A stretch of DNA of 64,000 bases from a virus. The position numbers and the translations under genes were made by a program. Below the pieces are notes generated by a model. The model saw only the letters and a list, made by a program, of their open reading frames with translations, was not told where the DNA came from and did not search any database. Shown here piece after piece: positions 2,240 to 48,443 of the stretch. The first letter of the stretch is position 1; every line of letters begins with the position of its first letter. Where the stretch lies: IMG/VR virus record IMGVR_UViG_3300037585_001448, positions 1 to 64,000 of that record; one strand, written 5' to 3'.

Positions 2240-2593
2240 TCAGGCAGTAATACGGTTGACGTACCCGTTTATCATCACCACATTCGCCGCAGCGGCAAAC
2301 GCCTTGATGACAAGACCGTTCTGCAACAGCAGACCCGGACACACAAGCACCCACCCTGCCTCAGCAGCAATGGTGACCTCTGTCAGATCGTCGGGTGAAG
2401 TAACGCCGCCGTATTCGATGGTTAGTTTCCTGTCCGTCGAATCGGTGTTGCAGGCGTACAGCCATACTTCGTCCAGATCAGATGTGCCTGCGACAGCGGT
2501 ATGGATGGTTGTTCCTGCCGTGGCGGTGGGTACAACCTTGATGTTCTTGCCTGTCGTGCCACCAGACAGTTTGACCTTTGAGTATGTTGCCAT
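2240..2593 (-). CDS. Tail fibre adaptor/structural protein (cassette gene 1, phage A)
   Basis: Paralogue of 40049-40414 (DEVWLYA..GYVNRITA). Confidence 0.6.
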   Translation of the reverse strand: MATYSKVKLSGGTTGKNIKVVPTATAGTTIHTAVAGTSDLDEVWLYACNTDSTDRKLTIEYGGVTSPDDLTEVTIAAEAGWVLVCPGLLLQNGLVIKAFAAAANVVMINGYVNRITA

Positions 2594-11565: not shown

Positions 11566-11663
11566 CTACTCGAACAACGACTGTAACGTCCGACCCAAAC
11601 CCCAAACCGTAAAAGCAACACACCCGAACAGAACAAACACCGTCCCGCACAACACCCACTCCC

Positions 11664-11861
11664 TCACTGACACGACTCGCACACCTCAGGGTTCTCCAAC
11701 CCGCACACCAACGGCTCATCAGATTGCGGCCCATGAAACGGATCCCCCCACGGCCCCAACACAGGACGCTCACCAAACGCCTCCTCACGCCACACCTGCT
11801 CATCATCACCATCAAACGCTGGACCCAACACCACACGCTCCGTAACCTTCGGCCAAGCCAC
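11664..11861 (-). CDS. Small acidic protein ending CGLENPEVCESCQ
   Basis: ORF between terS and terL. Confidence 0.6.
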   Translation of the reverse strand: MAWPKVTERVVLGPAFDGDDEQVWREEAFGERPVLGPWGDPFHGPQSDEPLVCGLENPEVCESCQ

Positions 11862-31600: not shown

Positions 31601-32901
31601 ATCTTGCGCCGACGCATAGCGCTATCAGCCCAATACCCGCTCGTCATCGCACCACGGTTGTAACTGTTGCGTATAAAGTTACCGAGAATAATCTTGTCAG
31701 GATCCTTCGTGCGAAGAAGACTGTTAGCGACCTTCTTCCGATCACGACCCTTCTGCTTAAACGCAATATCCTCGTCCGTAGCGCCCCGACCCCGAGCCAA
31801 CGTGTCCAAATACTTTTTTTGCGGATCAACAAAGAAATCACGGAACGTCTGACCGAAACGAGAAGAAGCCACCTTCTCCCAACCGATACCCGGCGACGAC
31901 ATGATCGATGCCGTCACACCAGAAGCAATCGGAAACACACCAAACGGCAACACATCCACAGGCACATTCGCCGCACGCTGCAACACCTGCCTGAACTCTT
32001 CAGGGATCTGATCCAACGTTTCACGCTTCTGGGCCTTAAAGACCAGATCTGCCATATCGGCATCCGGACCCAACACCTTCGCCATGCGTTCCTGAACGAG
32101 CCGTGGAATCTGAGACGCACGCTTGCGTGCAATACCAGCAGAACCACGGGTCAGCCTGCCCAACACTGGGCCTGTTCCCGGGACACGGAACCTCAGCCCC
32201 GTTTCAATCCCAAGATCATCGATAAGTTTCTTGCCGACCTCGCCATGCTGTCGTGCCAGAACATTTCTGGCACGAGAAACACTGCCACCCTTGGCACCAG
32301 CAGCCACCACAGCATCCTGTGCAGCCCGCAACGTAGCCTGCTGAGTGGCATCCCTGACACCCAACTCCCCCAGATCCTTCACCAACGGTGCCAGATCGTC
32401 CACAAGCCCCTTAGCGCCCCTCGCACGGGCAAAAGCACCCAACCCCCCAGCCCAAGACAACGGATCCAGCAGAACGTCTCCAGCAAGCCCTACAGCCCTG
32501 TTACCCCACTTGCCCAGATTGATATCTTCATCATGGAGAAAGTCGCCAAACCCATAATGTGTACGCGCCTGCTCCGTGAAGTCGCCCCAACTGAAACCCT
32601 CACCGTCGAAAGCGTCCTTGATCTCCTTCACACCCGAAGTGAGAATCGCACGGGGCATATCGATTACACCCAGTGCTTTGCCTAGGAAACCGCCGAAACC
32701 CCCGCCACCCTGTTGGGCGCCCTGTTGGGCGGCACGGCCACCCGAGGCGGCGAGTGCCGCCGCCATGCCAGCACGGTCAATCCCCCCCACCCCCCTAGGG
32801 GTGGTAGGCAGCGTGGGCAGGCCCGTTGGCATGGCGGGTAGCCGGGTACCACGGTTCTCTACGGCCTTGAAGATGTCTTCAGGAGACAGCCGGACGACCA
32901 T
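25603..32901 (-). CDS. Large internal virion/DNA-ejection protein (2432 aa)
   Basis: N-terminal GLAGDVLLDPL; C-terminal FNYGGLS..VFPFYTWTRNNLP, typical of podovirus ejection proteins. Confidence 0.7.
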   Translation of the reverse strand: MVVRLSPEDIFKAVENRGTRLPAMPTGLPTLPTTPRGVGGIDRAGMAAALAASGGRAAQQGAQQGGGGFGGFLGKALGVIDMPRAILTSGVKEIKDAFDGEGFSWGDFTEQARTHYGFGDFLHDEDINLGKWGNRAVGLAGDVLLDPLSWAGGLGAFARARGAKGLVDDLAPLVKDLGELGVRDATQQATLRAAQDAVVAAGAKGGSVSRARNVLARQHGEVGKKLIDDLGIETGLRFRVPGTGPVLGRLTRGSAGIARKRASQIPRLVQERMAKVLGPDADMADLVFKAQKRETLDQIPEEFRQVLQRAANVPVDVLPFGVFPIASGVTASIMSSPGIGWEKVASSRFGQTFRDFFVDPQKKYLDTLARGRGATDEDIAFKQKGRDRKKVANSLLRTKDPDKIILGNFIRNSYNRGAMTSGYWADSAMRRRKIFLNEVQQNVGRVDDETLGRLTELSPELVDDFADGVVSPQVMDAVRGRFPGLSDEQILFVVRRYDELIRTPDSEFLSRGDLYGSEGQLVNDMNDVMVDFGGYTPEIWTPDGLEIVRGAHGGGLPPWMEGVSREFEEVLPDAQTMDEVRRRATSGRLRRRNMRPAGTRADGTFGDGTELVVPRADGSGSVRRLLRRSNPQRADVQQRVVGQGPDGRSTVIRRDLTPEELATRRRRPARELTTEPEGLSVPEQIEAAYREAGHLGEGESLFVRGFEARENAHINSLAADIRLRSIESYAASQGLIYNADTYRGYARELADLEDAVRVGNEALQGLTDDEAAAQAVVDAILAVGAGARAQTIENLEAWVARHGADLPEAQARVDELTNLLHEGRVESQLLVNEVTAIVDDLQDILGYRRVATTPRVPGTDTTLGWLNSGIPFEDLVAAPPGANPVAFSIDAIRQLAPILEDLDSVMVRARLLSEGVAKFAKLSKDIRNIGSTTGPTGLVVRTVDATTGAVDDPTFLAGLQALDADIQASLNFLETDLLPFAASLSDSAMLHDQTVVAAEALRRATALSAGTQSVPTQTFFDQVNAEFASMGFEGGNNRALHRFSEEQMRHPVDEKWYPPATPGGELRSTEEVIRAGMGGTPEGAERGEKLISSLRGLQAVHRDVAQAVADVTGESVDAVAGRLPFEEIIGFTATWYVNDGFDVTFTVFGSFNRSDTARVLGTMIEVSDFQPRIQRILGAYMDSMILYEADRLQVPVRAGSIMTGSTDRGDMVDSYIFGRSDGAGNRVVEGGANGLFEPFQAWRLPDADGNLQTVWETPGLSAESKTFIRAAQDLLAQRPNAANAPINDLIANGDLVLPPAGPIRDAIEEIIASGAGLGDTLSGWAEVIPDMVNEFTSDFNRHHFYGMAGLTRLANRPLDVGSYYGLEIASVADGNLGADGAVRAADIVGGGYTSGGSAKRTPTVPGELRGNQGRLWRSKRGVAVPKVLGFGNEGGMRVGPTPLSAASGDAAARQVALLTELGDLENILNVNYLSNLLPDALRSETSGTSMESLIAHAKHVREGLAATAEQTWGTAGLQRYMPFLGREPFPVPSAVGDPSGLSPRIDLPEMRARLEDLQISLEDQISGGPSSAQADDFAMEVAGIPTDAGTLRSFAAGFDDLDPQYVLDDLMTRVDDTISNIAYAADTGSGRTAGLSPLNDFWRAFRDLRNAARWTPAAGGYTPGDTFIGLAGSDQFAALVDDATWDAAIAEYRANGQRLGLFDEEDRYPLSLLETNNPQLRANIDADVSDPGLRDLLNEYALVRVGDRVYNPAAAEAGGATYTAPIPEQVANVIRDALDTGVGVRSNEYWNAIQSVLDNWGVPNGAFERGELIEWGYLVQQYDNLRAGKVNQASFMAEERLYGAFDKAILDTSDEINRLNTQIRSSDPAARAASQGRLDARRETLAKKELLVQNIQLQRLEVEQKILLAEQQRNNLANKVGNMLGAANGKPFNLNSFGGQFDLSGVTASQLQDLFNAGGKQMWGSGAMDEWLVAGNAEFADEFTYAMLAAQKMDDRVEVGNFLKAYDKAHNWLKAQMVATPGFVARNVFGGMANMWFADIPLTEVPRTFRLIDKAYKAGNGDLAAGFRKLVADNPGNVEYANALELVQLGVHGGGQAASVVDVNLGRTSRMDWVWGSKENSKYSGRIRMNPMDAGFFMFAGVRHANTFAEEAMRLGTGLYMRRVGGSVDDALEMTYKLHFNYGGLSEAERRFGKRVFPFYTWTRNNLPLQMSFLANSPGKFNRLMSLRRNIELGEEREGTVPDYFMEGFGLQLPFSIGGAQAYSQPDFPLQDLFKFDPTQRGYGKVMEQMFSSTTPFLKTPIEYWAGKRVFEGIPFREEYVPVPAATRMIPGLMQAAQALGWAKKNSKGEWMMYDNRLAVLDNMMPFVGRLRRVIPEDEKTQSRWIQSVMSMFGGVSLRLNTPREQRNERVRRRVEREMTRQDRLDLERPRR

Positions 32902-32906
32902 CGGAT

Positions 32907-35525
32907 TTACTTACCCCATCCGGGTTTCCCGTTGGCTTTCAGCATCCCGAACGTATTGCCACGGCTATGTTGGAACAGAATGTATTCTTCCACAGTGGGA
33001 TAGTTGGCAGGCAAGATGTCCATCATGGCTTCCAACTCCACATCACCGTATTTGGTTCCTGCGCCCTCGTGCCCTGCAGGAACAGTGAAGGAGTCGCCCG
33101 ATTGGAAGAAGCGACCAACGGCTTTACCAGTAGCAGCCGCTGCATCACCAACAGCGCCCGAAACGCCTTCACCCCACTCAAAGTTGCCCGTCGTGCCTTT
33201 TTCACGCAGTCGCCTCATCTGCTCATTTTTGACGGACAGCGACGACCCTGCTTCTAGGCTCTCAGATTCCGACAAGTTCCCAGCCCCCGAATCGTACCCA
33301 CCAGTGGTGGTCCGGGTTTCCTCCAAGGCATCCACGGCAGCCTCCGCCAACGGCTCAGCAACCTCCTGCGAGGTGCCATCTTCCATAAACTGTTCGGTGT
33401 ACAGGAACGTCAACACTGGGCCGTAGCCCAAAGCAGCCAGAGCGTGTGCGTAACCTGTGTTGTCGGCGTTGATGTTGTTGTTATACATGTAGTCAGCGAC
33501 TTCCTGCATAATCGCAGCACCGCCCTCTACCGAACCAGCGTGCAGCGACAACTGTGTCCCCAAGTTGAAATCCTGATCGCCCAACTCGGCAATATCCATC
33601 GCCTGATCCCACGCAAACTGATCGTCAGCCAGATCAAACTTGTCTTCAAGCAACTTGAACTGGTTCTTCTCCAACTGGCGGTCTATCACCCCAGCAGCCT
33701 GATCGCCGCGGGCCTCCCACCAATCCAAATCCAGCCCCTTCTGGGCGAAGTCCAACTTGTCAGCAGCCATACCCTCAGTAGAAGCAATCTGGTCAGCGAA
33801 CTGTTGAGCCGACACCTGCTCCGCAGCAGTCAACCCCGTCGCCGTATCAAACCCGTACTGGCGCCCAGTCGACGGGTCGATACCCTGAGCAGCCAACGTC
33901 GCCGTCTGTCCAGCATCCAACCCAGTCGCAGTGTTAAAGCCGTACGGAAGACCAGTAGCCGGATCGATCCCCACATCAAACTGGCGGATCTGCTCAGCCA
34001 ACCTGTCAGTATCGACCGCCCGATCCAAACCGCCCTCACTGACAGTCAAAGCACGATCCAACGCAGCCTCACTGATACCAGTCGACAAGCCCGGAATATC
34101 CACCCCGGAAGCCAACCCGGCAGCAACAGCACGCGGATCCAAACCCAAGAACGGTGCCAAATCAGCGGCCTGCAACGCCTGCGAACGGGCATCATAATCG
34201 GCACCAATCCTGTCCGTCTCAGCGCCATAACCCAACTCGTTCGTACGGGACCGCAAATCCTGCTTGTACCCCCCGAAGATACCCTCACCCATAAACTTGC
34301 GGTCGGCATCAGCCATCTGAGAAACCAAACCCAGATCATCTAAATAGGCTCCACGCTCCTCAGCGCCCGCCATCGCAACAGCATCAGTCATATCCAACCT
34401 GTCACCAACCAACCCCGGGTTCACCCCGGCAGCCCGCAACTGCTCCTCCAAAGCCATACGGTCGTCGTACCGTTGCGCCCGCTGAGCATCACTCACATTG
34501 CGGAAATCGCTAGTAACAGCGTTCTGTGTGGAAAGAAAATCTTTCCACACGCGCTCAGTCTCAGTATCGTACAGTTCCTGCGCCGTCTTAATATCCAACA
34601 GACCACTGTTCAACATGCTTGTGATAGCGGTCTTGGTGTCGTCCAGTCTGGTTTGGGCGACATCGCGGGCGTTCTCACTTAACGTTTCAATAGTGCCTGC
34701 GGGGTCGCCCGGAGGAATGTAACCCGCTGGTGGAACATAGACGGGGTCATCCACAACAGTGTCATCCACAACGGTGTCATCTACGACGGTGTCATCTACG
34801 ACGGTATCGTCACCGCCACCCATGTCGCACGCGCCGTTTACCCAAGTTCCCCCACCCTCAACACACAACTGCTGGGGAGTTTTAGCAACACCCTTGACTT
34901 TAATCTTGCCGTCCACCCACTCGTACTTGCTCGTGGCCGCAGGCTCTCCCAAACCTCCTTGACCATCCCGCAACATCGTTGCGGCGTCCTCGCTTAAAAA
35001 CCCTGCAACGCTGCCATCCCCCATGGGATCCAGACCAAACTGGACACGAGCCTCGTCGCTACCCAACCCCTCCAACATCTTCAAATACTCGTTCGCATGC
35101 TGCTGCGGAGTCTTCTCCACAACAGGCAAATCATCTACTCCCGATGCTGCGTTGTTGGCGTCGTCAATAGCCTGCATCGCCGTAGCGTTTATATCACCCC
35201 ACTGGTACTGTGACCCCGTCGGGGCAGCCGTAGTTGCATTCGCTGCGCCACCCGGCGACTGATCAGGGAGAATCTTAAACGCCGCAGTACCATCCGGCTT
35301 CAATGTAACTGTGCCGTTGCCATGGGGCTTCAGCATCGCCTCCACGATCTGGCGTTGTGCATCAAACCCCGGAGTCACCGTGGGAAGCGGCTTCGCTTCG
35401 GAGCCTTGCGCCACAGACGCAAAGAACCGCGCCAACTCAGGCGAAATAACATCCTTCGTTTTCGTGGGAGTCCCCTGAGAATAACGGTTATTACCTTGAC
35501 CCGGATCGAAACCAAACCCACCCAT
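32907..35525 (-). CDS. Internal virion/ejection protein (872 aa)
   Basis: Acidic and helical, with DDTVV repeats; upstream of the large ejection protein. Confidence 0.55.
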   Translation of the reverse strand: MGGFGFDPGQGNNRYSQGTPTKTKDVISPELARFFASVAQGSEAKPLPTVTPGFDAQRQIVEAMLKPHGNGTVTLKPDGTAAFKILPDQSPGGAANATTAAPTGSQYQWGDINATAMQAIDDANNAASGVDDLPVVEKTPQQHANEYLKMLEGLGSDEARVQFGLDPMGDGSVAGFLSEDAATMLRDGQGGLGEPAATSKYEWVDGKIKVKGVAKTPQQLCVEGGGTWVNGACDMGGGDDTVVDDTVVDDTVVDDTVVDDPVYVPPAGYIPPGDPAGTIETLSENARDVAQTRLDDTKTAITSMLNSGLLDIKTAQELYDTETERVWKDFLSTQNAVTSDFRNVSDAQRAQRYDDRMALEEQLRAAGVNPGLVGDRLDMTDAVAMAGAEERGAYLDDLGLVSQMADADRKFMGEGIFGGYKQDLRSRTNELGYGAETDRIGADYDARSQALQAADLAPFLGLDPRAVAAGLASGVDIPGLSTGISEAALDRALTVSEGGLDRAVDTDRLAEQIRQFDVGIDPATGLPYGFNTATGLDAGQTATLAAQGIDPSTGRQYGFDTATGLTAAEQVSAQQFADQIASTEGMAADKLDFAQKGLDLDWWEARGDQAAGVIDRQLEKNQFKLLEDKFDLADDQFAWDQAMDIAELGDQDFNLGTQLSLHAGSVEGGAAIMQEVADYMYNNNINADNTGYAHALAALGYGPVLTFLYTEQFMEDGTSQEVAEPLAEAAVDALEETRTTTGGYDSGAGNLSESESLEAGSSLSVKNEQMRRLREKGTTGNFEWGEGVSGAVGDAAAATGKAVGRFFQSGDSFTVPAGHEGAGTKYGDVELEAMMDILPANYPTVEEYILFQHSRGNTFGMLKANGKPGWGK

Positions 35526-35956
35526 TACGCCATAGCCTCCCGAATCTCAGCCGCCCTCGCAGCACGAGACTCAGCCACCCCCAAAACATCCTCAAACCGC
35601 GACCCCTGATAACCCCCATAATCACCCAAACGCTGTACCGCCAAATTGAACATAGCCTGCTCCAAAGCGCCCCCACGCTCCGCACGACGGCGATCATAAT
35701 CCGCCCCCGCCTCCGCCAAAGCCAAATTGCGGATACCAGAATCCTGCAAACCACGACGAGCCATACCCGCCTCCAACTGGGGTACAGCCTTACTCCACTG
35801 CTTCGACATATCAAACTTGTCGCGGTTATACGACGTACGCGCCTGCTTCTGCCCCATAGAAGACTTAGCCAAAGCAGCAGCCAGACGCGACGAAGGAGAA
35901 GTCCCGTACGGATCCGCTATATTGTACTTTGGTGTCTGATACGGGTTGAACGCCAT
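35525..35956 (-). CDS. Small internal virion protein
   Basis: MARRGLQDSGI motif; synteny. Confidence 0.55.
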   Translation of the reverse strand: MAFNPYQTPKYNIADPYGTSPSSRLAAALAKSSMGQKQARTSYNRDKFDMSKQWSKAVPQLEAGMARRGLQDSGIRNLALAEAGADYDRRRAERGGALEQAMFNLAVQRLGDYGGYQGSRFEDVLGVAESRAARAAEIREAMA

Positions 35957-36339
35957 CAGCCGTAAACCTGACCTGCCAACAGCAACGTAGCCGTTTCCAC
36001 ATTCACATTCACAGTCACAGTACCCGACGCACCACCACCACTGATGGCTGTGCCAGCCGTCACACCCGTAATGTCACCAGTAGTAGGGGCCGTCCAAGTT
36101 AGCCCGCTCGCTGTAGTTGAATCGGCAGTAAGAACATACGTATTTATTCCCGCCGTCAACTTCGTCGCCGTATCGGCCCCTGTTCCAACGATCAGATCGC
36201 CCTTGGCGTCCGTGTCTACAGTAAGGGTCACGGCACCCGTTGAACCGCCACCCGCTAGACCCGACCCCGCCACGACATCCGTGATGTCGCCCGTCGAAAC
36301 CTGATCTACGACCCTTTGAGAAATCCGATTCAAACCCAT
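35956..36339 (-). CDS. Short tail fibre protein with two GDITxVxAG repeats
   Basis: Repeat also seen in phage B gene 40424-41185. Confidence 0.6.
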   Translation of the reverse strand: MGLNRISQRVVDQVSTGDITDVVAGSGLAGGGSTGAVTLTVDTDAKGDLIVGTGADTATKLTAGINTYVLTADSTTASGLTWTAPTTGDITGVTAGTAISGGGASGTVTVNVNVETATLLLAGQVYG

Positions 36340-36771: not shown

Positions 36772-37122
36772 TCATTCCTCCCAGAAAGACTGCTCGTCCT
36801 GCATCAACAACACGCCCACAGAGGAAGCCACTCCAGCGATCAGTTCCTCCATTGCGTCCACACGGCTACACAGGTCTTCCATCGCTGCCAACCGTGTTTC
36901 TAAATCCCGAATGTCTTCCGAAACATCTTCCACTCGCGCATAAGCGTGCATATCCATCGAATCTTCAATGGATTCAACCGACTCTTCGAGGCGGTCGATG
37001 CGTGACACTGTGCGTGCAGACGACCATGTGATTGTTCCTGCGATGACCGCTACGGACAGGATGAGCCCGACCGCGATGGTCGGTATCTTTACCTGTCGGA
37101 TGTCGGTCGGCTCGTTCATCAC
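36772..37122 (-). CDS. Membrane-anchored coiled-coil protein
   Basis: One N-terminal TM helix followed by heptad repeats. Confidence 0.55.
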   Translation of the reverse strand: MMNEPTDIRQVKIPTIAVGLILSVAVIAGTITWSSARTVSRIDRLEESVESIEDSMDMHAYARVEDVSEDIRDLETRLAAMEDLCSRVDAMEELIAGVASSVGVLLMQDEQSFWEE

Positions 37123-37445
37123 TCAGCAGCGAGCCTTGCCGCCTCAGCAGCATCCCAAGCAGCCTGTGTTGGTGGGTCCATCGGCCACACAACCTCAGAC
37201 ACACGCGAATACGTCGCAGGTAGATCCCGCAACGACTGGCGGTACGCAGCCCACTCCTCAGCGGTGTGGTCACCTAACGCGGCGTCAGCCAACTGTGTCC
37301 AGTCTGCTGCTGCCAGCATCCCGTTGCGTTGCGATCTGACCATGTTCATGTCCAGATCGGCAGCCTCAGCCCGCGCATCCAGTTCCGCTTCTTCTTCCGC
37401 GGTCAGGTCGTAGTAGACCCCGTTGACAACCTTCTGTCTTGCCAT
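37119..37445 (-). CDS. Tail fibre assembly chaperone
   Basis: RSQRNGML..DWTQLADA..WAAYRQSLRDLP..WP. Confidence 0.85.
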   Translation of the reverse strand: MARQKVVNGVYYDLTAEEEAELDARAEAADLDMNMVRSQRNGMLAAADWTQLADAALGDHTAEEWAAYRQSLRDLPATYSRVSEVVWPMDPPTQAAWDAAEAARLAAE

Positions 37446-37447
37446 TT

Positions 37448-37978
37448 CTATGCTCCTGTTACTCCGTAGAGGGTGAACGATGAATACTGCATCAGGTCGC
37501 CGTTTTGCGGGTCGATAGTGATTGAGGTGATCGCAGCGGTGCTAGACCACAACCCCGCCCCTATGCCCATTGTCCAATAACCGTTTGTGGTGGTAGCCCC
37601 TTCGGTGACGAACCCTGCTACTACCTGCTTGAAGTTCGCCGTGTTCGCATAGTTCGGAATCCAAATGCTTGCGTTACCGAAGGTGTCAGCAGTTGACCCA
37701 TCGGCGTTTATGAGAAGAACGCGATCCAAACCATCAGCACCCGACGTTCGCCACGACCCTGCGGAAGCCTGCCCATAGACTCCCGTTGACGAATAGTTGG
37801 TACCCGTATCGCCGTTGAACTGGACATCCACATAGTCGTACCAGTTGCTTGTACCCAGCGAGGAGCGGGCCGAGATGGTCAAATACAGGTGGTCGTAGGA
37901 CGACGGGATGGTTGCCGAAGTCCATGACGCTGCAGCGCCTGTGAGTTCTTCGTGGTCGATAACAGTGAAAGCAGCCAT
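37448..37978 (-). CDS. Tail-tip/receptor-binding protein (cassette gene 5; contains the A/B junction)
   Basis: Same motif family as 172-678; its 5' end is also present at 1-172. Confidence 0.65.
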   Translation of the reverse strand: MAAFTVIDHEELTGAAASWTSATIPSSYDHLYLTISARSSLGTSNWYDYVDVQFNGDTGTNYSSTGVYGQASAGSWRTSGADGLDRVLLINADGSTADTFGNASIWIPNYANTANFKQVVAGFVTEGATTTNGYWTMGIGAGLWSSTAAITSITIDPQNGDLMQYSSFTLYGVTGA

Positions 37979-38022
37979 CAGGAACTATTCAATCCGTAGA
38001 GGGTGAACTCAGAACCACGCAG
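37807..38022 (+). repeat. Direct repeat copy 2
   Basis: Matches 1-216. Confidence 0.95.
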
Positions 38023-38493
38023 AAAGTTGCTGCCACCAGACTGGTCTATCAGGATCGTGTGTACCGCTGCGGTGTCATCCCACAGGCCCGAATCCACCGA
38101 AACGAGGTTGGCCTCGTCCCCAATCCCTGAGAGTATTAAACAGGTCGTGTTCTTGTTCGTGTTCGCATAGTCCAAGATGTCCCACACCACCCCCCCGAAG
38201 AGGGTGGCAAGGACGGCGTTCGCCCATCTCCCCGCATACATTTCAGAGTTCCCCGTAACGGCTTGGCCCAATGTGGTTGTGTCGTATCCCATCATTCGGT
38301 GAGCGGAGTAGTTGGACCCCGTATCACCGTTGAATCGAATCGCACCGTAAGACGGCTGGGAAGCATGGGTGTAGTCAGTTTTGGCGTTGATGCGGAGTTG
38401 CAGATGCTCGTACGTCGCAGGAATAGACGAGAACGTCACCGACGTAGCATTAGCCTCCAAATACGTTGTGGCGATTGCTTCGATCACAGCCAT
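37978..38493 (-). CDS. Tail-tip protein (cassette gene 4, phage B)
   Basis: Paralogue of 172-678. Confidence 0.65.
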   Translation of the reverse strand: MAVIEAIATTYLEANATSVTFSSIPATYEHLQLRINAKTDYTHASQPSYGAIRFNGDTGSNYSAHRMMGYDTTTLGQAVTGNSEMYAGRWANAVLATLFGGVVWDILDYANTNKNTTCLILSGIGDEANLVSVDSGLWDDTAAVHTILIDQSGGSNFLRGSEFTLYGLNSS

Positions 38494-39080
38494 CAGGCCA
38501 CCATCCTTGGGAGGATGCCGAACAGGTCGATGCGGGTGCCGATAGCGAAAGTTTCACCTGACCCGATCATGTCGATTTCGGAGATCGGTGCTTGTGACTT
38601 CCAAGTAGTCGCACTCAACCATGCTTGCCCGTTGCCGTCCATGTCGTTTGCGCTCTGGCTCACACTTGACTTGTATTTGCCGCTGTTGATGTCGAACAGA
38701 TGAGACACGGTGGCTGAGAAAACATTGGCGGTGTCACCGTTTCTGGGGGCGTAACCCAGATAAGCGGAGGTCGTAGTGCTTGCGTTCGGGAACAACGAAG
38801 GGGATGCCCCGTCGCAGTAGAAGATTTGATATGCGTAGTTGCTGGCGGTGTCGTTGTTGTATTGAGCGGCCAGATAGTCCCCGTAAGTGGCCCCAGTGGA
38901 GTACCGCACATACGAGATAATGACCAGATCCATGTATTGCGACCAGTCTCCGACCTGACCGTCATCGGTGGATGTGAACGTGATCTCCGAAGCAGTACCC
39001 GTCAGCGTCGTGGACGCCAAAGCGACCCATGCCTCACCGTCCGTGAGAACACCATCAACGATGTATGCGGGATCAGCCAT
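38493..39080 (-). CDS. Tail-tip protein (cassette gene 3, phage B)
   Basis: Paralogue of 678-1265. Confidence 0.65.
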   Translation of the reverse strand: MADPAYIVDGVLTDGEAWVALASTTLTGTASEITFTSTDDGQVGDWSQYMDLVIISYVRYSTGATYGDYLAAQYNNDTASNYAYQIFYCDGASPSLFPNASTTTSAYLGYAPRNGDTANVFSATVSHLFDINSGKYKSSVSQSANDMDGNGQAWLSATTWKSQAPISEIDMIGSGETFAIGTRIDLFGILPRMVA

Positions 39081-40045
39081 TAGACCGCATACCTGATGAT
39101 GACAATGCCCGCAGCACCGCCGCCCGCCTGTCCACCAACGCTACCGTCGCCCCCCTTGCCGCCACCGCCGCCGCCCGTATTCGGAACGCCGCTGTGGGCA
39201 GGCTCTGTTGTTCTTGTTGCATCGCCGCCGCCACCCTGACCGCCGCCTTGTCGGTCGGTTCCTGAGCCGCCCCCGCCACCCGCATAAGTCGGTGTCGTTG
39301 CGGTAATCCCATAACCTGCGGCACCAGCACCGCCGTCGCCTCCGTACTGGTTAGTCCCGCCGCCGTCGCTGCCCACACCCCCAGCGCCACCGCCTCCCCC
39401 AGCGGATTCTTTCGACACGTTATCGCCGCCGAGGCCACCGTCGTATCCTTGACGGGGCGGTCCTGCAACACCAGCCCCGCCAGCGTGTGTGGAATCTGCG
39501 GGACCGTTTGTGCCCCCGCCCCCGCCTGAACCGCCAGCCCCACCCGCATCGTAATCATGTCCACGACCACCACCCGTGCAGGTCACTCCTAAAGCGGAAC
39601 TGTTAGAACCCGCAACACCCGCAGCGTCGTCACCGCCCGCTCCACCCGCACCAACAGTGATGGTGTACGGGCTGGAAGCCACATCGACGGTAACAGCCGT
39701 ACTTGTCAACAGGCCCCCAGCGCCGCCGCCACCAGCGTTGTAGGTGGCTGAGGCACGCCCGCCTCCACCGCCGCCGCCTGCGACAATCAGATAATCGACA
39801 TCAGCCGAACCGCTGGCAACATAGAACTTGCCTGAACCACGGAACGTATGAACCCGATACGTCGTACCAGAATCCTCATACTGCGTGATGATCCCACCGA
39901 ACGCCGTCATAGGCGCAGCACCACCGAACAGGCCACCATTTAGCCAAGTAGACGTAGCCGTCGAAGGCCACGCCTTAGGCGTACTCCTGTTCCCCCGCCA
40001 GTTAGAAACAGCGGTGGACGGGTTCGTCCGGTCCTGACGGAACAT
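39080..40045 (-). CDS. Glycine-rich tail protein (cassette gene 2, phage B)
   Basis: First ~42 aa identical to 1265-2236. Confidence 0.7.
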   Translation of the reverse strand: MFRQDRTNPSTAVSNWRGNRSTPKAWPSTATSTWLNGGLFGGAAPMTAFGGIITQYEDSGTTYRVHTFRGSGKFYVASGSADVDYLIVAGGGGGGGRASATYNAGGGGAGGLLTSTAVTVDVASSPYTITVGAGGAGGDDAAGVAGSNSSALGVTCTGGGRGHDYDAGGAGGSGGGGGTNGPADSTHAGGAGVAGPPRQGYDGGLGGDNVSKESAGGGGGAGGVGSDGGGTNQYGGDGGAGAAGYGITATTPTYAGGGGGSGTDRQGGGQGGGGDATRTTEPAHSGVPNTGGGGGGKGGDGSVGGQAGGGAAGIVIIRYAV

Positions 40046-40048
40046 CTA

Positions 40049-40414
40049 TCAGGCGGTGATCTGGTTGACGTAGCCGTGAAGCGTGATGACGTTCGTCGTT
40101 CCAGCGAACGCCTTGACGATCAGCGCCGTCGAAGCGTTCCCCTTCAAGAGCAGCCCGGGCGCGACCAGAACCAGCCCGGCCTCCGTACCGATCGTCACTT
40201 CGATCAGATCGTTCGGCGACGTTGTGCCACCCCACTCCAATGTCAACTTGACATCAGCCGAGTGAGTGTTCATCGCGTACAACCAAATCTCGTCATACGT
40301 CGTCGCGGTGCCTGACCCGGTGTGGATCGTGGTCCCGGCGCTGCTGGTCGCAGCGACAAGCACCGCCCGCCCGTCCGTTGACCCTGACAGTTTGGTCTTT
40401 GCAAATGTTGCCAT
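40049..40414 (-). CDS. Tail fibre adaptor (cassette gene 1, phage B)
   Basis: Paralogue of 2240-2593. Confidence 0.6.
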   Translation of the reverse strand: MATFAKTKLSGSTDGRAVLVAATSSAGTTIHTGSGTATTYDEIWLYAMNTHSADVKLTLEWGGTTSPNDLIEVTIGTEAGLVLVAPGLLLKGNASTALIVKAFAGTTNVITLHGYVNQITA

Positions 40415-40423: not shown

Positions 40424-41185
40424 CTAACCAGAGAATACTTGTCCGGCGAGAACGATGTTTGCATCCGTCCACGCTGTTGCTGGTGCGCTGTCTAAAGTGA
40501 GTGTCCCGATCGTAGCCGTATCGGTCACGGACAGATTGCCGTCATCGACTACGAGGGCATCCTGTCCGTCGGTGCCAGTAATGGTGAGAGATTCTGCACT
40601 TGAGTCCCAAACGCATTTATCTCCCGCCGTGTCTGAGAAAAGCGTTACGTCAACTCCCGACCCGTCAGAGCCGAAGGCCACAGCGGCGTCGATAGCGAGG
40701 TTCAACGTGGCTGCCCCGCTCGTCGCACCGCCCGACAGGTTCGTTCCCGCCACGACCGAAGTGATGTCACCCGCTGACACGACATCGGAGATCAACGCCT
40801 TCTTCGTAGCGTTGGAATCGTCAACGTCTGAGATCAGCATGTAGTCCGAGGTCGTCGCCGTCGCTGAGGTCGCCCCGTTCACATCCACGTTCACCGTGAC
40901 CGTGCCCGAAGTCCCACCACCCGACAAGGCCGTACCCGCCGTGACACCTGTGATGTCTCCGGCGAGATCAACCGCAACCCAAGAGGAACCGTTGTAATAC
41001 GACAACGTGTCAGCCGGAGTCGTCGTCGTGTACGCGAACATTCCATCGCTGGGGCTGGTCAGCGCAGCGTCACGGGCCGTAGCCGTAGCGAACACCATGA
41101 TGCTCTGTTGCATGACGTAGGTGTTCAGGTCCGATGCCGTTAGGACATCGCCTGTGCTCCATGTCTTGAAGCCTGCTCCGGCCAT
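40424..41185 (-). CDS. Siphovirus tail fibre/minor tail protein
   Basis: FKTWSTGDVLTASDLNTYVMQQ anchor; GDITxVxAG repeats. Confidence 0.7.
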   Translation of the reverse strand: MAGAGFKTWSTGDVLTASDLNTYVMQQSIMVFATATARDAALTSPSDGMFAYTTTTPADTLSYYNGSSWVAVDLAGDITGVTAGTALSGGGTSGTVTVNVDVNGATSATATTSDYMLISDVDDSNATKKALISDVVSAGDITSVVAGTNLSGGATSGAATLNLAIDAAVAFGSDGSGVDVTLFSDTAGDKCVWDSSAESLTITGTDGQDALVVDDGNLSVTDTATIGTLTLDSAPATAWTDANIVLAGQVFSG

Positions 41186-41213: not shown

Positions 41214-42449
41214 TCAGTACGAAAGCGCCGAGGTGCCTAGCACCCCTGAGGTCGCGCTGTCCAAGATGAACCCATCAAGGATCTTCTCTGCGGTCTGGAA
41301 CGTCGTTTTCCACGACGACGGGGTGATCGTATGTTCGATGCCCTGAACGGACAGGGTGCGGGTCACCGTGCCGCCGCCCGGCTGCGTTCGGGTGACCTGA
41401 ATCGGGTCGAACAGTTCGGTGTCCAACGCGGCGATCACCCGTGCGCTCGTGTCCTGATAGGCGTCAATCGTGATACTGCCGATGCGAAGTTCGGGGTCTT
41501 TGCGCTCGTTCAGGATCGCCTTGGCTTGAAGTAACGCATCTGCGTCGGAGTCCATGAGTAGCCCGGTGCGGGACAGGTCACGAAGGAAGAACGAGTTGAT
41601 CGAATCCGTGTCGCTGACATTCTGGGCGCTGCCCCCGGTGCGCTGAACCGTGACATCGTTAGCGAGGATCGTGTCGTCAATGTCGAAGTCGATTGACTCG
41701 TAGTAGATCCCCGACCCGGTGTCTACATACACCGTCGGTGACGCAGCGTGCGCTTTCACGATCGCGTTGCGGTCCATGAACTTGAGGACACCGTTCGTCT
41801 TGGTGAAGAACGCCCCCAACTCCGTGTCGGTGATTGTCTGGCACGCCGTCAACGTGTCGCGTGTCGTACCGGGGTCCGCTTGACAGGTTGTGAGGCCCGT
41901 TGAGAAGTCTCGGCTGGATGTCGGCCAACTGATCTCGTCCAGTATCTCCCCGAGCCGAATGCCGGTCGTGTCGCCCGCCGATGACCCGGCCACGTTCGTC
42001 ACGTTCGTCAGGTTCAGGATGCGGAACGCATCGGTCGCTACGAGGGTCACGAACGCAGCGTTCTCACCGGGCGTGTATGTGTAGTCCCACTCGTCAATGA
42101 ACCCCGAGTAAAGCGTGTAAAGCGTCCCCGAGTAGGTGGCGGTGACTTTCAACTGGCGCATCGGGAGGATCTTGTCGGCGTAGGTGCCGTTGTCAGGATC
42201 AAAGACCCCCGTTGTGTCCGTGAACGTCACCGTCGAACGGCCTGCCTCATGGCGGTCAAGGATTCGATCTCTGCCTCTAGCAATGTTCACCGTGTTCACG
42301 AGGCTCGTGATGTCCACCGGGAGGGTCGCCGCATCCGACAGAACACCCGTACCCAACGGAGACGCAGCGTCACCAAGCACAAGGTCAACACCGAACGACG
42401 GCGACGCCGTGAACCGAACCGACACAGCCAGCGTCGCAGCAGCAGCCAT
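41214..42449 (-). CDS. Minor tail / baseplate hub protein
   Basis: Immediately after the tape measure; IARGR..FDP and FILDSATSGVLG. Confidence 0.7.
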   Translation of the reverse strand: MAAAATLAVSVRFTASPSFGVDLVLGDAASPLGTGVLSDAATLPVDITSLVNTVNIARGRDRILDRHEAGRSTVTFTDTTGVFDPDNGTYADKILPMRQLKVTATYSGTLYTLYSGFIDEWDYTYTPGENAAFVTLVATDAFRILNLTNVTNVAGSSAGDTTGIRLGEILDEISWPTSSRDFSTGLTTCQADPGTTRDTLTACQTITDTELGAFFTKTNGVLKFMDRNAIVKAHAASPTVYVDTGSGIYYESIDFDIDDTILANDVTVQRTGGSAQNVSDTDSINSFFLRDLSRTGLLMDSDADALLQAKAILNERKDPELRIGSITIDAYQDTSARVIAALDTELFDPIQVTRTQPGGGTVTRTLSVQGIEHTITPSSWKTTFQTAEKILDGFILDSATSGVLGTSALSY

Positions 42450-45400
42450 TACAACACCACCGCCCTACCGGCCTGCTGCGACCTGAGAAGCCCCCGTCGG
42501 ATCGACTCCACAAGGTCACGTTCCGACGCCACCGACCCTTCGACGTTGACAGTGATGTACGTCGCACCGCCACGCGGTGAGATCGTTTCTCCGGCGTGGA
42601 CGTTGACCAGACCGGCGCTCTTGACGAAGCCACCCTTGGCAGCAGAAGGGACGCCGAACATATCTTCCAAAATCTTGGCCGCATCATCCGCACCCAACTC
42701 CCCAGCGCCAAAAGCCGAGAAGGCACCAACCCCCAACGCAACCTCATTGACGGCGTTGAGGATGGCGTTCTTCCCGATGGCGTCTTGACCGGCGTAGTGG
42801 GCCGACTGCTGGATGTCGGAGAACCAGTCTCGGTACTCCTTGGGCTGCTGGCTAAGTGTGTTCAACCATTCGGATTCCAGACCGATACCACCCTGCGAAG
42901 GCCCAGCAAAGTTAGTCGTTCCACCACCACCCGTAGCACCACCACCACCACCGGTAGTGCCACCGCCTGCGGTGGCTGCGTCGTTGATCTTGTCTTTGAG
43001 GTCGGCGAAAGCGCCGCCTGCGTCATAGATCAGGTCGGTCAACTCACGCCAAAGGTCGTTCTGCGCTGACTGTGCTGCGTTGACTTCATCTTGGACACGC
43101 TGCAACCGAACCTCAGCGTATTCCTGCTGCTGGGTTGCCGCTTCCAGAGCCGACTGCGCTTCCGTTTGCCGTGCCAGAGCGGCGGTCTTCTCTTCCTCAG
43201 CGTCCGTCAACGCCTTCGTGATCTGCGCCCTTTCCGTATCCAGCGCAGCGGATTCCTCACCCAACTTGAGGAGGTCATCTTCCAACCCTGCCTCAACCAC
43301 CCTGATGCGGTTCAGTTCCTTCGTTCGGGCAGACTCAAAGTCTGTCGCCTCAGCCTCAGCCAACTTCGCCAACCGCAGATCCTCGGTAGCGATCGCCAAC
43401 TTGAGGCTGATGTTCTCCTGTTCCTTCTGCAACACCGCGGCCTCGGTACGCACCTCGTTGAGTGCCCTCTGCGCGGCTCGTAGTTCGTCAGATCCGCTGC
43501 GGGCCTCAGCCATCGCCCGGTCGTAGTCCTGCGTCGCCGACATGAGAGCAAGGACATCGACTTCGCCGTCCTCGTACTCCTGTTCGACCTTCCGCAACTG
43601 GGCTTCCAACCGTTGCAGCGTTTTGGCTTCCCTGACAGTCAGGTCCATCAACCCGGCGTCCTCACCAGAGATGAGGTTCATGTCGATAAGCGCCTGCTCA
43701 ACATCGTTGATGGCTGCCTGCTGTGTCTGCAACGCAGCGACGTTCGCTTCGGCGCTCGTTACGTCAACTACCGCGTCGCGGGTGCCTTCCAGTTCCTTGA
43801 CCTTTTCGGCCAGTGTGATCGTCGCCAGTTTCGCTTTGTTGAGGTTGTGGGCCAGCGACGCCGCGAACTCTGTGTTGTCCAACGCGTACTTGGCACGTTC
43901 CGCATCCAACGCGGTGATCTCCGCGGTGACATCGGCTATCTCATCAACAATGGCTAGTTGCCGGGCGACAATCTCAACGTCGCGGGCATCAAGGGCGGCG
44001 ATCTCTTCCTTGAGACGCAACTGGTCGCTGATCGCTTCGTCACGGTCCCGTTCAGCGTCGGCGATGTGACGAACAGTGTCAGCGACATCTTGGTGGGCGT
44101 CACGCAGGTCGTTGGCGAGTCGCAGGGCGTCACGTTCAAGGTCGGCTTGTTCCTGCAACAAGCGGATACGTTCATTTTCGGCGTCGATCACAGCCTGAGC
44201 CGCGTCGGCTACCCCCTTGCGGTAAGTGGCCTCCCTTGCTGTTTCTCTCCCCGCCTTGAAGTCAGCCCCCATCGAATACAACTTGGCGTCACCCGCATCC
44301 GAGTACGCCTGAGCAACCCCACGCACCTCGGCTGCTTCTGCCGCTGCCGCTTCGGCAGCCTCAGTCATTCCCGAAGCCAGCATCGTGACGACGCCAACCG
44401 CCCGCTGCCGAACCACGTTCGCTTCACGGGTGGCAAGAACGTCGTCCCAAGTCCGTTCGGTTTCTTCCTCTACAGCAGCAGCCACCCCCAACCCGGCTTC
44501 ACGCAACCGGTTTTCCACACCAACAGCCTGATCCTGAGCAGCGGCGAGTTCTTCCGTGATTGCTGTCAGTCGCGCCTGCCGCGTCTCCAACGACCGGGTG
44601 TAAGCGATCACCATTTCCAACGCCTCTGCGTGCTTGCCCTCAGCAACAAGGTTGTCAACGGTTGCCCTCTGGCCTGCGTTCAGGGCGTCCGAGTAAGCAA
44701 GCACATTCGCGGCGCTCTCGAAGTATTGCTCGGCAGTCTTCTCCTGAGCCGCCCGATCGTCGTCGTAGGCGTCAGCGGTCTTATCCAACGAAATCAGGAT
44801 GTTCTTGAGACCTTGGTTGGAAAGTTTGCCCTGTCGCATCGCTTCGATTACTGCGTCGGTGTCTTCACCTAGGACATCCCGGTGGGCTTCCAAAACCCTG
44901 ATGTTGTTTTCCTCATGGCCCTTCATGGTGACGATCGACCCGGCGAGGTCTTGGTAGGCGTCGGACCCTGCCGCGGTCATCGCGTTGTGGTGTTCCATGT
45001 CGGTGATGTAGGTATCGAAGACGGCTTTGACATCCCGACCGATGAGTTCCTGCATCAACACCATGCGCCCGTTGAACTGCTCAACCTCTTCGTCGGCGTC
45101 TCCGGTTACGTCAGCGAGTGCTTTGAGGCGTGCCGTCAACTCGTCAACATCGGTGGTGAGGATCGTGGATGCTTCACCCGTGTCGATCATTTCTTCGCGC
45201 AGCAACTTCATGCGGTCCTGATCGCGTTGCGCTTCCTCACGGTTCGCTTTCAACGCCAAGAACAAGCCGCCACCGATAATCGCTGCCGCCCCAACAGCGG
45301 CAAACCCGAGGCCACCTGTAGACATCCCCAGTTTCGCAGCGAGCGTGCCAATGCCCTTCGCCATGCCGCCGCCGCCGGTAATCATCCCGGTGACACCATC

Positions 45401-46642
45401 ACCAACCTTCTTCAACGCCCCAAGGCCACGGGCGACGCTGCCGATCCCTATGAGCGCCGGGCCAGCAGCCGCGGCTATCCCCGTAAGGGCAATCACCATC
45501 TTCTGCATGAACGGCGACAGGTTGTTGAACTTGTCAGCGAGATCCTTGATGAACGCAGCCAACTTCTGGATCAACGGAACGACTATCGGGATCAACTTCT
45601 GCCCGAGGTCGATCATCACGATTTTCAGGTCGTTCATCGCCTGTTGCATCTTGAACCCGGCGGTGTCCTCAACCGCTGCCATGCCCCGATTCAACGTCCC
45701 CGCCGAACGGGTCATCTCGTCCATGACACCAGCAGCCTCAGCAGCAGCCGTCCCGGTCAACTGGAGCGCACCCGCTAACGCCTCGGAGTCCTCAAAGACG
45801 GCCCCCATTTCCTTGCCGTTGGCTTCCAACTGGGTACGCATATCCATCAGAGCGCCCAACAGGTCTTCATCGGCTGCCGACCGGAGGTCTTCGACACTCA
45901 GGCCGACATCTTCAAGCGTTTGGCGTGCCATCTGAGACGGCTTGATGAGGGTACGAAGGATGCCCCGCAACGAACTCGTTGACTGCGAAGCGTTACCTGA
46001 CGCTCTGGTCAGGAAAGCCAACCCGCCACCAACCTGATCGAACGAGATACCCAACTCGGCTGCCATCGGGATCAAGCGACCAAACTGTGGGGCGAGGTCT
46101 TCGGCAGATGCCTTGCCCTGCTCAACGGTCTTGGCGAGAACGTCGGTGGCTTCGGCTGCGGAGATGTTCGCCGCCCCGTAGCCGTTGATAGCGTTCGTGA
46201 CCGCATCAGCGATCACCTCGGCGTCGCCCATCCCGATCGCTGCGGCTTTCGCTGAGGCTTCCAACGCCTCAACTGCGGTTGCCCCCCGGAGGCCAGCCGA
46301 AGTGATGAAGAACATTGCGTCGGCAAGTTCCCTCGGTGCCTGCGCTGTTTCCCCCGCCAACCGCAGGACATCTTGCTCAAAGCCCTTGACGGTCTCAGCG
46401 GACAAGCCGACCATGCTTTGGATCTTCGTCATCGAAGTCTCAAAGTCGGACGCTGCTTTGATGGCCCCCGCTGCCGCGCCCGCAATGGGCATCGTCAACG
46501 CCATCGTCATCTTCGTTCCGGCCTTCTGGGCCGACGTACCAAACTTGGTGAGTTTGGACTCAGATTCTTTCAGCGCGGAACTAAAGTTCTTCGCGTCAAG
46601 GCGAAGGCTGGCTACGAGTTCAGCAACCTTCGTCCCTGCCAT
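42449..46642 (-). CDS. Tape measure protein (TP901-like)
   Basis: 1397 aa, Ala-rich helical, hydrophobic middle, long coiled coil. Confidence 0.9.
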   Translation of the reverse strand: MAGTKVAELVASLRLDAKNFSSALKESESKLTKFGTSAQKAGTKMTMALTMPIAGAAAGAIKAASDFETSMTKIQSMVGLSAETVKGFEQDVLRLAGETAQAPRELADAMFFITSAGLRGATAVEALEASAKAAAIGMGDAEVIADAVTNAINGYGAANISAAEATDVLAKTVEQGKASAEDLAPQFGRLIPMAAELGISFDQVGGGLAFLTRASGNASQSTSSLRGILRTLIKPSQMARQTLEDVGLSVEDLRSAADEDLLGALMDMRTQLEANGKEMGAVFEDSEALAGALQLTGTAAAEAAGVMDEMTRSAGTLNRGMAAVEDTAGFKMQQAMNDLKIVMIDLGQKLIPIVVPLIQKLAAFIKDLADKFNNLSPFMQKMVIALTGIAAAAGPALIGIGSVARGLGALKKVGDGVTGMITGGGGMAKGIGTLAAKLGMSTGGLGFAAVGAAAIIGGGLFLALKANREEAQRDQDRMKLLREEMIDTGEASTILTTDVDELTARLKALADVTGDADEEVEQFNGRMVLMQELIGRDVKAVFDTYITDMEHHNAMTAAGSDAYQDLAGSIVTMKGHEENNIRVLEAHRDVLGEDTDAVIEAMRQGKLSNQGLKNILISLDKTADAYDDDRAAQEKTAEQYFESAANVLAYSDALNAGQRATVDNLVAEGKHAEALEMVIAYTRSLETRQARLTAITEELAAAQDQAVGVENRLREAGLGVAAAVEEETERTWDDVLATREANVVRQRAVGVVTMLASGMTEAAEAAAAEAAEVRGVAQAYSDAGDAKLYSMGADFKAGRETAREATYRKGVADAAQAVIDAENERIRLLQEQADLERDALRLANDLRDAHQDVADTVRHIADAERDRDEAISDQLRLKEEIAALDARDVEIVARQLAIVDEIADVTAEITALDAERAKYALDNTEFAASLAHNLNKAKLATITLAEKVKELEGTRDAVVDVTSAEANVAALQTQQAAINDVEQALIDMNLISGEDAGLMDLTVREAKTLQRLEAQLRKVEQEYEDGEVDVLALMSATQDYDRAMAEARSGSDELRAAQRALNEVRTEAAVLQKEQENISLKLAIATEDLRLAKLAEAEATDFESARTKELNRIRVVEAGLEDDLLKLGEESAALDTERAQITKALTDAEEEKTAALARQTEAQSALEAATQQQEYAEVRLQRVQDEVNAAQSAQNDLWRELTDLIYDAGGAFADLKDKINDAATAGGGTTGGGGGATGGGGTTNFAGPSQGGIGLESEWLNTLSQQPKEYRDWFSDIQQSAHYAGQDAIGKNAILNAVNEVALGVGAFSAFGAGELGADDAAKILEDMFGVPSAAKGGFVKSAGLVNVHAGETISPRGGATYITVNVEGSVASERDLVESIRRGLLRSQQAGRAVVL

Positions 46643-47675: not shown

Positions 47676-48443
47676 CTAGAACCTAGCGAAACTCACCATG
47701 AAGGTGATTGAACCGGATGACCCGGCACTGGTAGCGGTCGCTCGGACGTACCGGTTCACGGTCCCCGAGCAAACCACCATCTCCGATGTCTTGGCTCCTG
47801 CCCCGACAGCGGTGAATGAGATGAGATCGGCAGCCGACCCAAAGTCAGAAGCCGAATCATGTTGAACTTTGATAGTTGTGACGCCCCCGCCGACGCTGTT
47901 GACGGGAACGTGGAGCAGCGCGGCCCCGCCTGCGGTAGAGGCTGCCGAGCCGTCCACACCGGTCAACGCACCAAGGGCGTTGTAGTCGATCGACGTAGCC
48001 GTGGTCAACTGAACGCCTGCGGTGATCCCGTAGGTCATCGTCCCCAGCGTTCCAGAGTTGCTGGTGCCTTGAAAGTCGGCGGTGACCGTCGATACGTCTG
48101 CGACCGGGTTAGAGATCGCGTAGTTGGTTTCGTGAGTTCTGGCGATCGTGGCCCGGTTGCCGATCGTCCCGCCAGCCTCAGCAATCGTGATATTCGGTGC
48201 GGTCGCTGAACCGAGGATCGCTTGGAGTTCTTCATCAGAGCCGTCGGTGTCAGCGGTCCACATCCCGCTCATTGAAAGTGTGCCGTCGGCCAACCCCAAA
48301 ATGTACGCCTTTGAGGAATCGCCAAACGAAGTCACCTCCGCTGTCTCGTTCGTGAGCGTCACATCAGCGGTGTTGAAGTACGGCGTCATCACGAACTCGT
48401 CCAGATAAACGTCGGTGCCTTTCCCATGTACGAACGTGGGCAT
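47676..48443 (-). CDS. Tail-tube paralogue with extra C-terminal beta domain
   Basis: Same MPTFVHGK start and EVTSFG..YILGLADG motif. Confidence 0.65.
   Translation of the reverse strand: MPTFVHGKGTDVYLDEFVMTPYFNTADVTLTNETAEVTSFGDSSKAYILGLADGTLSMSGMWTADTDGSDEELQAILGSATAPNITIAEAGGTIGNRATIARTHETNYAISNPVADVSTVTADFQGTSNSGTLGTMTYGITAGVQLTTATSIDYNALGALTGVDGSAASTAGGAALLHVPVNSVGGGVTTIKVQHDSASDFGSAADLISFTAVGAGAKTSEMVVCSGTVNRYVRATATSAGSSGSITFMVSFARF

Follow-up and report, generated by a model that had tools for sequence, protein, structure and literature searches.

In this study we analysed a window of 64,000 nucleotides (nt), which is the first 64 kb of the 93,140-bp IMG/VR viral contig IMGVR_UViG_3300037585_001448, listed as linear. 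On its minus strand we found two colinear strings of genes (2593 to 172 and 40414 to 37978) that form two copies of one cassette. Every gene of this cassette has conserved ends and a hypervariable middle, and the conserved stretches of neighbouring genes abut at the gene junctions. The middles of single genes are exchanged independently of each other, also between podovirus and siphovirus backbones. Judged by its sequence relationships, the region is probably a multi-gene tail-fibre/receptor-binding module carried by two otherwise unrelated phages, referred to as phage A and phage B. An initial annotation of the window had described a tail-tip cassette; we dropped the label 'tip' in favour of tail-fibre/receptor-binding module.

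The two copies of the first four genes, g1 to g4, are colinear as initially annotated, with lengths of 117/121, 323/321, 195/195 and 168/171 amino acids (aa) in A and B. However, the module is longer than these four genes. Beyond g1-g4, A and B have four more genes in common, and a variable slot lies upstream of g1. The order on the minus strand is slot 0, g1, g2, g3, g4, g5, a Tfa chaperone and two more genes, as listed here:

2603-3028, minus strand: slot-0 fibre-like protein of A (141 aa), weak tail-fibre PHROG match
2240-2593, minus strand: g1 of A (117 aa), match to phrog_30535 (E 2.5e-38), 57% identical to g1 of B and evenly conserved
1265-2236, minus strand: g2 of A (323 aa), fibre with TNF-like and polyglycine parts, Pfam Gly_rich_2 at 45.5 bits
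678-1265, minus strand: g3 of A (195 aa), jelly-roll paralog, chain 1 of the complex model, with a match to g4 of B at E 2e-6
172-678, minus strand: g4 of A (168 aa), jelly-roll paralog, chain 2 of the complex model
1-172, minus strand: start of the phage A copy of g5 (codons 1-57), 57/57 aa identical to 37808-37978; the contig begins within the gene
37448-37978, minus strand: g5 (176 aa), a composite open reading frame (ORF), third jelly-roll paralog, chain 3 of the complex model
37119-37445, minus strand: Tfa chaperone of A (108 aa), Pfam Phage_tail_APC, 59% aa identity to the B copy at contig positions 92642-93046
35956-36635, minus strand: two further cassette genes of A (97 and 127 aa), 59% and 56% aa identity to their B homologues (96 and 116 aa)
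37978-38493, minus strand: g4 of B (171 aa), all-beta sandwich in the AlphaFold2 model with lectin/TNF/C1q-like matches
38493-39080, minus strand: g3 of B (195 aa)
39080-40045, minus strand: g2 of B (321 aa), Pam3 gp24-like fibre, Gly_rich_2 at 72.3 bits
40049-40414, minus strand: g1 of B (121 aa), match to phrog_30535 (E 1.7e-48)
40424-41185, minus strand: slot-0 fibre-repeat protein of B (253 aa), with repeats common to the 127-aa protein of A and the 116-aa protein of B

Conserved junctions and diverged cores

Comparison of the two cassettes by BLASTN yielded four blocks, all of which sit across gene junctions, and a fifth block whose partner lies beyond the window:

1-272: 92.4% identical to 37807-38084 (E 8e-112)
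578-711: g3/g4 junction block, 93.3% identical to 38393-38526
1110-1307: g2/g3 junction block, 84.2% identical to 38925-39119
1953-2268: g1/g2 junction block, 86.5% identical to 39759-40077, spanning the 94-aa docking/TNF-like N-terminus of g2
37347-37539: g5/tfa junction block, the fifth, 90.7% identical to contig positions 92948-93140, the last 99 nt exactly

These junction patches of about 130-320 bp are 84-99% identical and span TGATG/TAATG stop-start junctions; the overlap of stop and start codons in g3, g4 and g5 suggests coupled, equimolar translation. With the g4/g5 and g5/tfa blocks set aside, A and B match exactly over 29-56 nt at most. The gene boundaries had been called near-perfect in the initial annotation, which was too strong for two of the four: ungapped identity amounts to 99.1% at 1-216, 93.2% at 581-712 and 96.4% at 1210-1265. 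The sub-block 2005-2235 contains a 3-nt indel and is 86.5% identical with gaps, and codons 16-30 of g2 are 100% identical. The interiors are as diverged as had been stated, since the cores align at 48-56% nt identity and the whole genes at 55-59% aa identity.

Such a pattern would also be expected from protein constraint if the cassette had been inherited or transferred once and its docking ends had stayed similar while the middles drifted, without any recombination at the junctions. Indeed, the ends are conserved in their aa sequence, too; among them are the N-terminal part with which g2 docks and, in the sandwich proteins, the first as well as the last strand. We therefore turned to fourfold-degenerate codons of identical amino acids and compared the third bases of A and B. 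These bases match in 37/52 cases in the N-terminal block of g2, in 8/9 and 5/6 cases at the ends of g3, in 14/14 in the N-terminal and in 9/9 in the C-terminal block of g4. In the core of g2 they match in 25/89 cases, which is about the saturation level. Synonymous sites are thus far less diverged in the blocks (71-100% identity) than in the cores (28%), in contrast to what constraint on the proteins would predict and in agreement with the proposed role of the boundary blocks as recombination handles. It follows from this excess that the common ancestor of the blocks is much more recent than that of the cores, and the alternation of five blocks cannot be explained by one transfer and subsequent divergence.

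Exchange of single genes among marine phages

A search of IMG/VR with g2 provided 132 relatives, the best 80 of which were analysed as independent loci; they are mostly marine, judged by sample series, and all genomes compared are short-read metagenome assemblies. Gene order is kept across these loci from slot 0 to the gene corresponding to the 127-aa protein of A (A127-type). Most of them reside in podovirus backbones with a major capsid protein (MCP) that is 63-91% identical to that of A. A few are located behind homologues of the 411-aa and 253-aa genes of B (L053, L079 and, weakly, L081/82). In this population, both aa identity and fourfold identity peak at the gene ends, with fourfold values of 0.45-0.74 compared to about 0.30 in the cores. 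Within the same loci, fourfold identity is 0.51-0.58 in the main blocks, 0.44 in the MCP backbone and 0.25-0.37 in the cores; the C-terminal block of g4 is an exception with 0.42. The blocks are therefore somewhat younger and the cores older than the backbone, as expected from recombination that draws on an old pool of alleles.

Alleles were counted for each slot as classes at 70% aa identity. The cores fall into 28-43 classes (38-64 sequences), whereas the main blocks form 1-3 classes and the C-terminal block of g4 forms 11. The g3/g4 block is 88-94.5% identical at the nt level in at least 11 independent loci with unrelated flanking cores. In locus L009, identity to phage A stops at position 1963, the inner edge of the N-terminal block of g2. 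The proteins of loci L003 and L004 are 99% (g1) and 93% (Tfa) identical, but their cores only 29-53%. Exchange of a single slot is seen for L033: it shares g4 alone with L019 (90% nt identity; g3 63%, g5 51%) and g5 alone with L052 (95% nt identity; g2-g4 58-60%). The record of L033 (G001) is a 96%-complete podovirus genome of 36.8 kb that encodes a podovirus MCP but lacks the tail protein of the siphoviruses. L052 stems from a complete siphovirus record of 53.5 kb with direct terminal repeats (G002), in which the siphovirus tail protein is present and a podovirus MCP is absent. Exchange of one slot between the two morphotypes is thereby seen independently of the contig under study. With abundant mosaic alleles and slots that are shared one by one at the nt level, the data support the idea of the initial annotation that individual subunits are swapped.

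These data also bear on two explanations that do without junction recombination. Under protein constraint, single slots should not be 90-95% identical at the nt level where the neighbouring slots reach about 50-60%, nor should fourfold identity lie above that of the MCP backbone in the blocks and below it in the cores. We consider this explanation quite improbable. Alternatively, the cores could be diversified in place by a diversity-generating retroelement (DGR) or a similar mutator that spares the ends. Variable regions with conserved flanks in receptor-binding genes are reminiscent of DGR targets. However, self-BLAST of the 93-kb contig, with no specific search for a reverse transcriptase, did not reveal a template/variable repeat pair for any core; apart from the blocks of the cassette, a single repeat appeared, which lies at 87.2 kb and is unrelated. 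Moreover, the cores differ by indels and saturated synonymous change, beyond selected codons, and identical core alleles recur in unrelated backbones. Targeted hypermutation thus appears barely credible here.

Many of the related IMG/VR contigs (L003-L082) end inside or beside the cassette. This suggests that short-read assemblies of viromes regularly break up here, owing to the hypervariable cores and the shared blocks.

Two phage genomes in one contig

That both cassettes are found on the same contig is solely due to the assembler, which linked two genomes via g5. Bases 1-127 are an exact copy of 37807-37933, with the first mismatch at 128 in the self-BLAST, and the contig closes with 99 nt (93042-93140) that are identical to 37441-37539 and translate to the C-terminus of g5. 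Both contig ends and the internal join lie inside g5, which indicates an assembly path through a repeat common to two circles. On this sequence evidence, the contig is a figure-of-eight of podovirus A and siphovirus B through their shared gene g5. Phage A corresponds to the circle 1-37806 (37.8 kb) and phage B to 37807-93140 together with a stretch of g5, about 270 nt long, which the B part of the contig lacks (about 55.6 kb in all). The features concerned are:

37807-37933, no strand: assembly join, exact 127-nt copy of bases 1-127
42449-46642: tape measure protein of phage B (1397 aa)
47676-48443: major tail protein of phage B

Since the join falls inside g5, the ORF 37448-37978 is a composite of both phages, in which 37934-37978 adjoins B, 37807-37933 is common and 37448-37806 is continuous with A. 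The encoded protein is that of phage A g5, the first 57 residues being identical in A and B. A search with the interior of g5 for a second contig gave one match, from another sample and of only about 85% identity.

The genomic surroundings of the two copies differ. The cassette of phage A adjoins genes for an SU10-type adaptor (SU10_adaptor match of the protein at 4671-5468), MCP, scaffold, portal and TerL. Neither a tape measure nor a tail tube was found in A, in line with its assignment to the podoviruses. Its portal, scaffold and MCP are related to those of Mx8 and Brucella podophages, distantly so for the MCP, which is at most 37% identical to any protein of 50,697 GenBank phages. The cassette of phage B adjoins the tape measure, the major tail protein and a different MCP. 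By their gene content, A is a podovirus and B a siphovirus, and their genomes are otherwise unrelated. Together with the independent records G001 and G002, these contexts confirm that the cassette is used across morphotypes.

Given this contig, assembly itself has to be considered as a source of the observed mosaics. Short-read assemblers may jump between co-occurring strains at conserved blocks and could thereby feign both mosaic cassettes and their sharing across morphotypes. Many related contigs break within the cassette, as described above, and a second IMG/VR record, IMGVR_UViG_3300020356_000001 (81,361 bp), contains two cassette copies (L061 and L075), one of them at its very start beside a podovirus MCP; it is probably a chimeric assembly of the same kind. 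On the other hand, the exact A-B matches of 29-56 nt in the other blocks are well under k = 127, the pattern of blocks and cores recurs in 80 contigs from many samples, and shared alleles stem from different samples. In addition, the 53.5-kb siphovirus genome with terminal repeats and the 96%-complete podovirus record of 36.8 kb confirm the two contexts. An assembly artefact is therefore a rather unlikely explanation, although less so than protein constraint or hypermutation. CheckV gives the IMG/VR record a completeness of 100 despite the join of two genomes.

In these two phages from one sample, A and B are exactly identical for 127 nt or more, possibly for about 490 nt. This points to recent contact, either in one cell or via intermediates, and makes overlapping host ranges plausible. 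A host common to A and B, as implied by the initial annotation, is thus plausible from the sequences. A prophage copy was not found among 185,579 species genomes with profiles of g2 and g3; the g4+g5 profile was too variable for searching. The hosts are probably marine Gram-negative bacteria.

We propose that homologous recombination within the junction patches of 130-320 bp replaces one or several cores at once, and that a large shared pool of alleles would supply the receptor specificity of each phage. The patches might persist because they encode parts that fit invariant partners, namely the N-terminal part of g2, which is disordered and highly conserved, and in each sandwich the first and the last strand. 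Conservation of the ends driven by docking would then also provide the homology for recombination, and recurrent exchange would in turn homogenise the patches.

Two other observations concern phage A. Downstream of its cassette, the region 25603-35525 contains genes for proteins of 2432 aa and 872 aa; neither has a Pfam match and the 872-aa protein has no PHROG match either. Homologues of these genes follow the cassette in several podovirus loci, and they possibly encode ejection or internal virion proteins. Furthermore, the TerL match at 10660-11836 is confined to a 301-aa ORF that is abutted upstream by a 95-aa ORF. The TerL gene may be split, frameshifted or contain an intervening element.

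Gene families, predicted folds and related systems

The fibre gene g2 is the best defined member of the module. Its Gly_rich_2 (PF21722) scores given above compare to a curated cut-off of 24.3 bits, and its AlphaFold2 model (predicted local distance difference test, pLDDT, of 87) matches 7ypx, the fibre of Pam3, and 9d93, the tail tip of Bxb1, with a Foldseek probability of 1.0. The match to 7ypx_A has an E value of 1.9e-5, template modelling scores for query and target of TMq 0.43 and TMt 0.53, and a root-mean-square deviation of 5.7; the Q chains of 9d93 were matched with E 1e-6. Glycine-rich domains of ALK gave weaker matches lower in the list. According to the model, g2 is a fibre that docks by a conserved stretch at its N-terminus and further has a TNF-like sandwich and a polyglycine domain, the latter of the type considered to be the antireceptor in Pam3 gp24; a role of g2 in the virion and in receptor binding is predicted. 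No match to g2 was obtained in 50,697 GenBank phages by a distant-mode DNA search and tblastn, from which we conclude that none of these phages carries the cassette. Searches of PDB sequences with phmmer and profiles for g1, g2 and g4/g5 retrieved nothing meaningful.

The remaining genes frame this fibre. The C-terminal chaperone domain Phage_tail_APC (PF16778) of the Tfa-type protein was detected with 68.5 bits (cut-off 26.6), and PHROG families for tail-fibre assembly were matched as well. Searches of Pfam, PHROG, PDB sequences and the ESM Atlas gave no assignable function for g1, the ESM Atlas returning unnamed viral clusters only. Slot 0 holds an A-type, a 253-aa-type or an A127-type gene in different loci, and homologues of the 253-aa type occur in several podovirus loci. 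Three proteins (40424-41185, 35956-36339 and contig positions 91990-92340) contain repeats of the form GDITxVxAGxxLSGGG...GxVTxxV, a fibre-repeat family that is used both upstream of the cassette, in slot 0, and downstream of it. The B homologues of the 97-aa and 127-aa genes of A lie at 91990-92640 of the contig, beyond the window. A P2-type baseplate (W-J-I-H), as a reading of the gene sizes, was rejected because corresponding Pfam or PHROG matches were not found.

Sequence comparison identifies g3, g4 and g5 as paralogs of one another. The model of g4 (pLDDT 93 for the B protein) resembles the C-domain of GH32, the C-domain of Pgp3, the tail fibre of HFTV1, C1q, BAFF and lectins with Z scores of 5.4-7.6; this likeness to lectin, TNF/C1q and phage fibre-head domains is a general one and no fold stands out. 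A complex model of g3, g4 and g5 reached an interaction prediction score from aligned errors (ipSAE) of 0.96, while the best control had 0.49; the mark set for this score is reached by 58/80 solved complexes and 2/110 mismatched pairs. Between runs of the model, 95% or more of the contacts agree, and the partner has a pLDDT of at least 94. Furthermore, all loci with the whole region, with the sole exception of L079, contain the same three slot types in the same order, which fits a heterotrimer. As to the heterotrimer that had been suggested for the three paralogs, the model supports trimerisation, as a prediction that is no demonstration of binding. On the basis of the models, one C1q-like heterotrimer and three homotrimers appear about equally probable.

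Our most far-reaching interpretation, in which g3-g5 form one C1q-like heterotrimeric receptor-binding head whose subunits are swapped independently at the junction blocks from a pool common to the podoviruses and siphoviruses that infect the same marine hosts, is put forward as a tentative possibility. Several points weigh against our explanation of the module as a whole, the heterotrimer included. Close paralogs pass the complex model as well, so that a heterotrimer and homotrimers are not separated. At the interface of the model, the enrichment of conserved residues is weak, with p = 0.047 in g4, p = 0.003 in g5 and no significance in g3, hence a structural reason for the conserved ends is not established; we did not adopt the explanation that the conserved ends constitute the trimer interface. 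In the population, the excess of fourfold identity in the blocks over the MCP backbone (0.51-0.58 vs 0.44) is modest. Finally, the contig of the window itself crosses between phages within the cassette and some slot combinations could be chimeric. If g3-g5 do form such a heterotrimeric head, its specificity would be generated by combination of subunits, each of which comes in some 30 or more allele classes.

Receptor-binding proteins set the host range of phages, and their diversification in uncultured marine phages is poorly known. The cassette adds about four unannotated families (g1 and g3-g5) to the receptor-binding repertoire and helps to interpret hypervariable islands that break marine virome assemblies. 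Its boundaries are defined enough to guide the swapping of fibres between phages in laboratory strains. Our analysis also draws attention to chimeric contigs in IMG/VR, a class to which CheckV assigns 100% completeness.

It has long been established that fibre genes are mosaic and exchanged across lineages and morphotypes with conserved ends for attachment. In the fibre genes of P2, Mu, P1 and lambda and in gp37/gp38 of T-even phages, recombination between conserved motifs swaps adhesin specificity. As in our cassette, conserved segments flank variable receptor-binding ones, exchange crosses lineages and morphotypes, and a conserved N-terminus keeps the attachment to the virion. In contrast to these systems, the cassette consists of five or six short genes in series that are conserved at both ends, with patches straddling stop/start overlaps. 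Klebsiella phages and CBA120/G7C-like phages possess anchor-and-branch sets of receptor-binding proteins. There, too, several genes for receptor-binding proteins follow one another, and modules can be replaced thanks to conserved docking domains at the N-termini. However, those proteins are tailspikes or depolymerases of large size whose N-terminal adaptor is a domain of its own, whereas the conserved ends described here belong to small single-domain sandwiches. The general principle of mosaic, exchanged fibre genes has also been stated elsewhere (PMC10386132).

The closest known counterparts of g2 are gp24 of the cyanophage Pam3, a trimeric fibre with the chaperone gp25 (PMC9608196), and the glycine-rich chains in the tail tip of the mycobacteriophage Bxb1 (9d93). 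As in these, g2 combines docking at the N-terminus with a TNF-like sandwich and polyglycine, and a Tfa-type gene lies downstream in the operon. In several groups of phages, 'brush' domains of polyglycine are considered to be antireceptors (PMC13243795). In contrast, g2 has no sequence-level match to any solved chain and its N-terminus is predicted to be disordered rather than helical. In addition, three jelly-roll genes are inserted here between the fibre and chaperone genes, and Pam3 is a myovirus while the cassette occurs in a podovirus and a siphovirus.

For g3-g5, the best precedents are the solved heterotrimers of adjacent beta-sandwich paralogs in mycobacteriophage baseplates, ORF60-61-62 of Jabs (doi 10.64898/2026.07.24.740622), where the complex is attached to the tail through residues at the N-terminus, and gp35-36-37 of Mysterious (PMC13252515). 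These are likewise encoded by three consecutive genes for similar beta-sandwich proteins of about 170-210 aa, and the heterotrimer of our study is predicted with a high score. However, no sequence similarity was detected between the two groups, the heterotrimer presented here is a model, and slot-by-slot exchange has not been reported for the mycobacteriophage complexes. Compared to all these systems, the serial layout of slots with whole single genes as cartridges is new, the families of g1 and g3-g5 have not been described before (that of g5 comprises more than 560 clusters, every one annotated as 'hypothetical'), and direct nt evidence is provided for the exchange of one slot between a podovirus and a siphovirus. 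A combinatorial heterotrimeric head, as suggested by the complex model, may be a further new feature.

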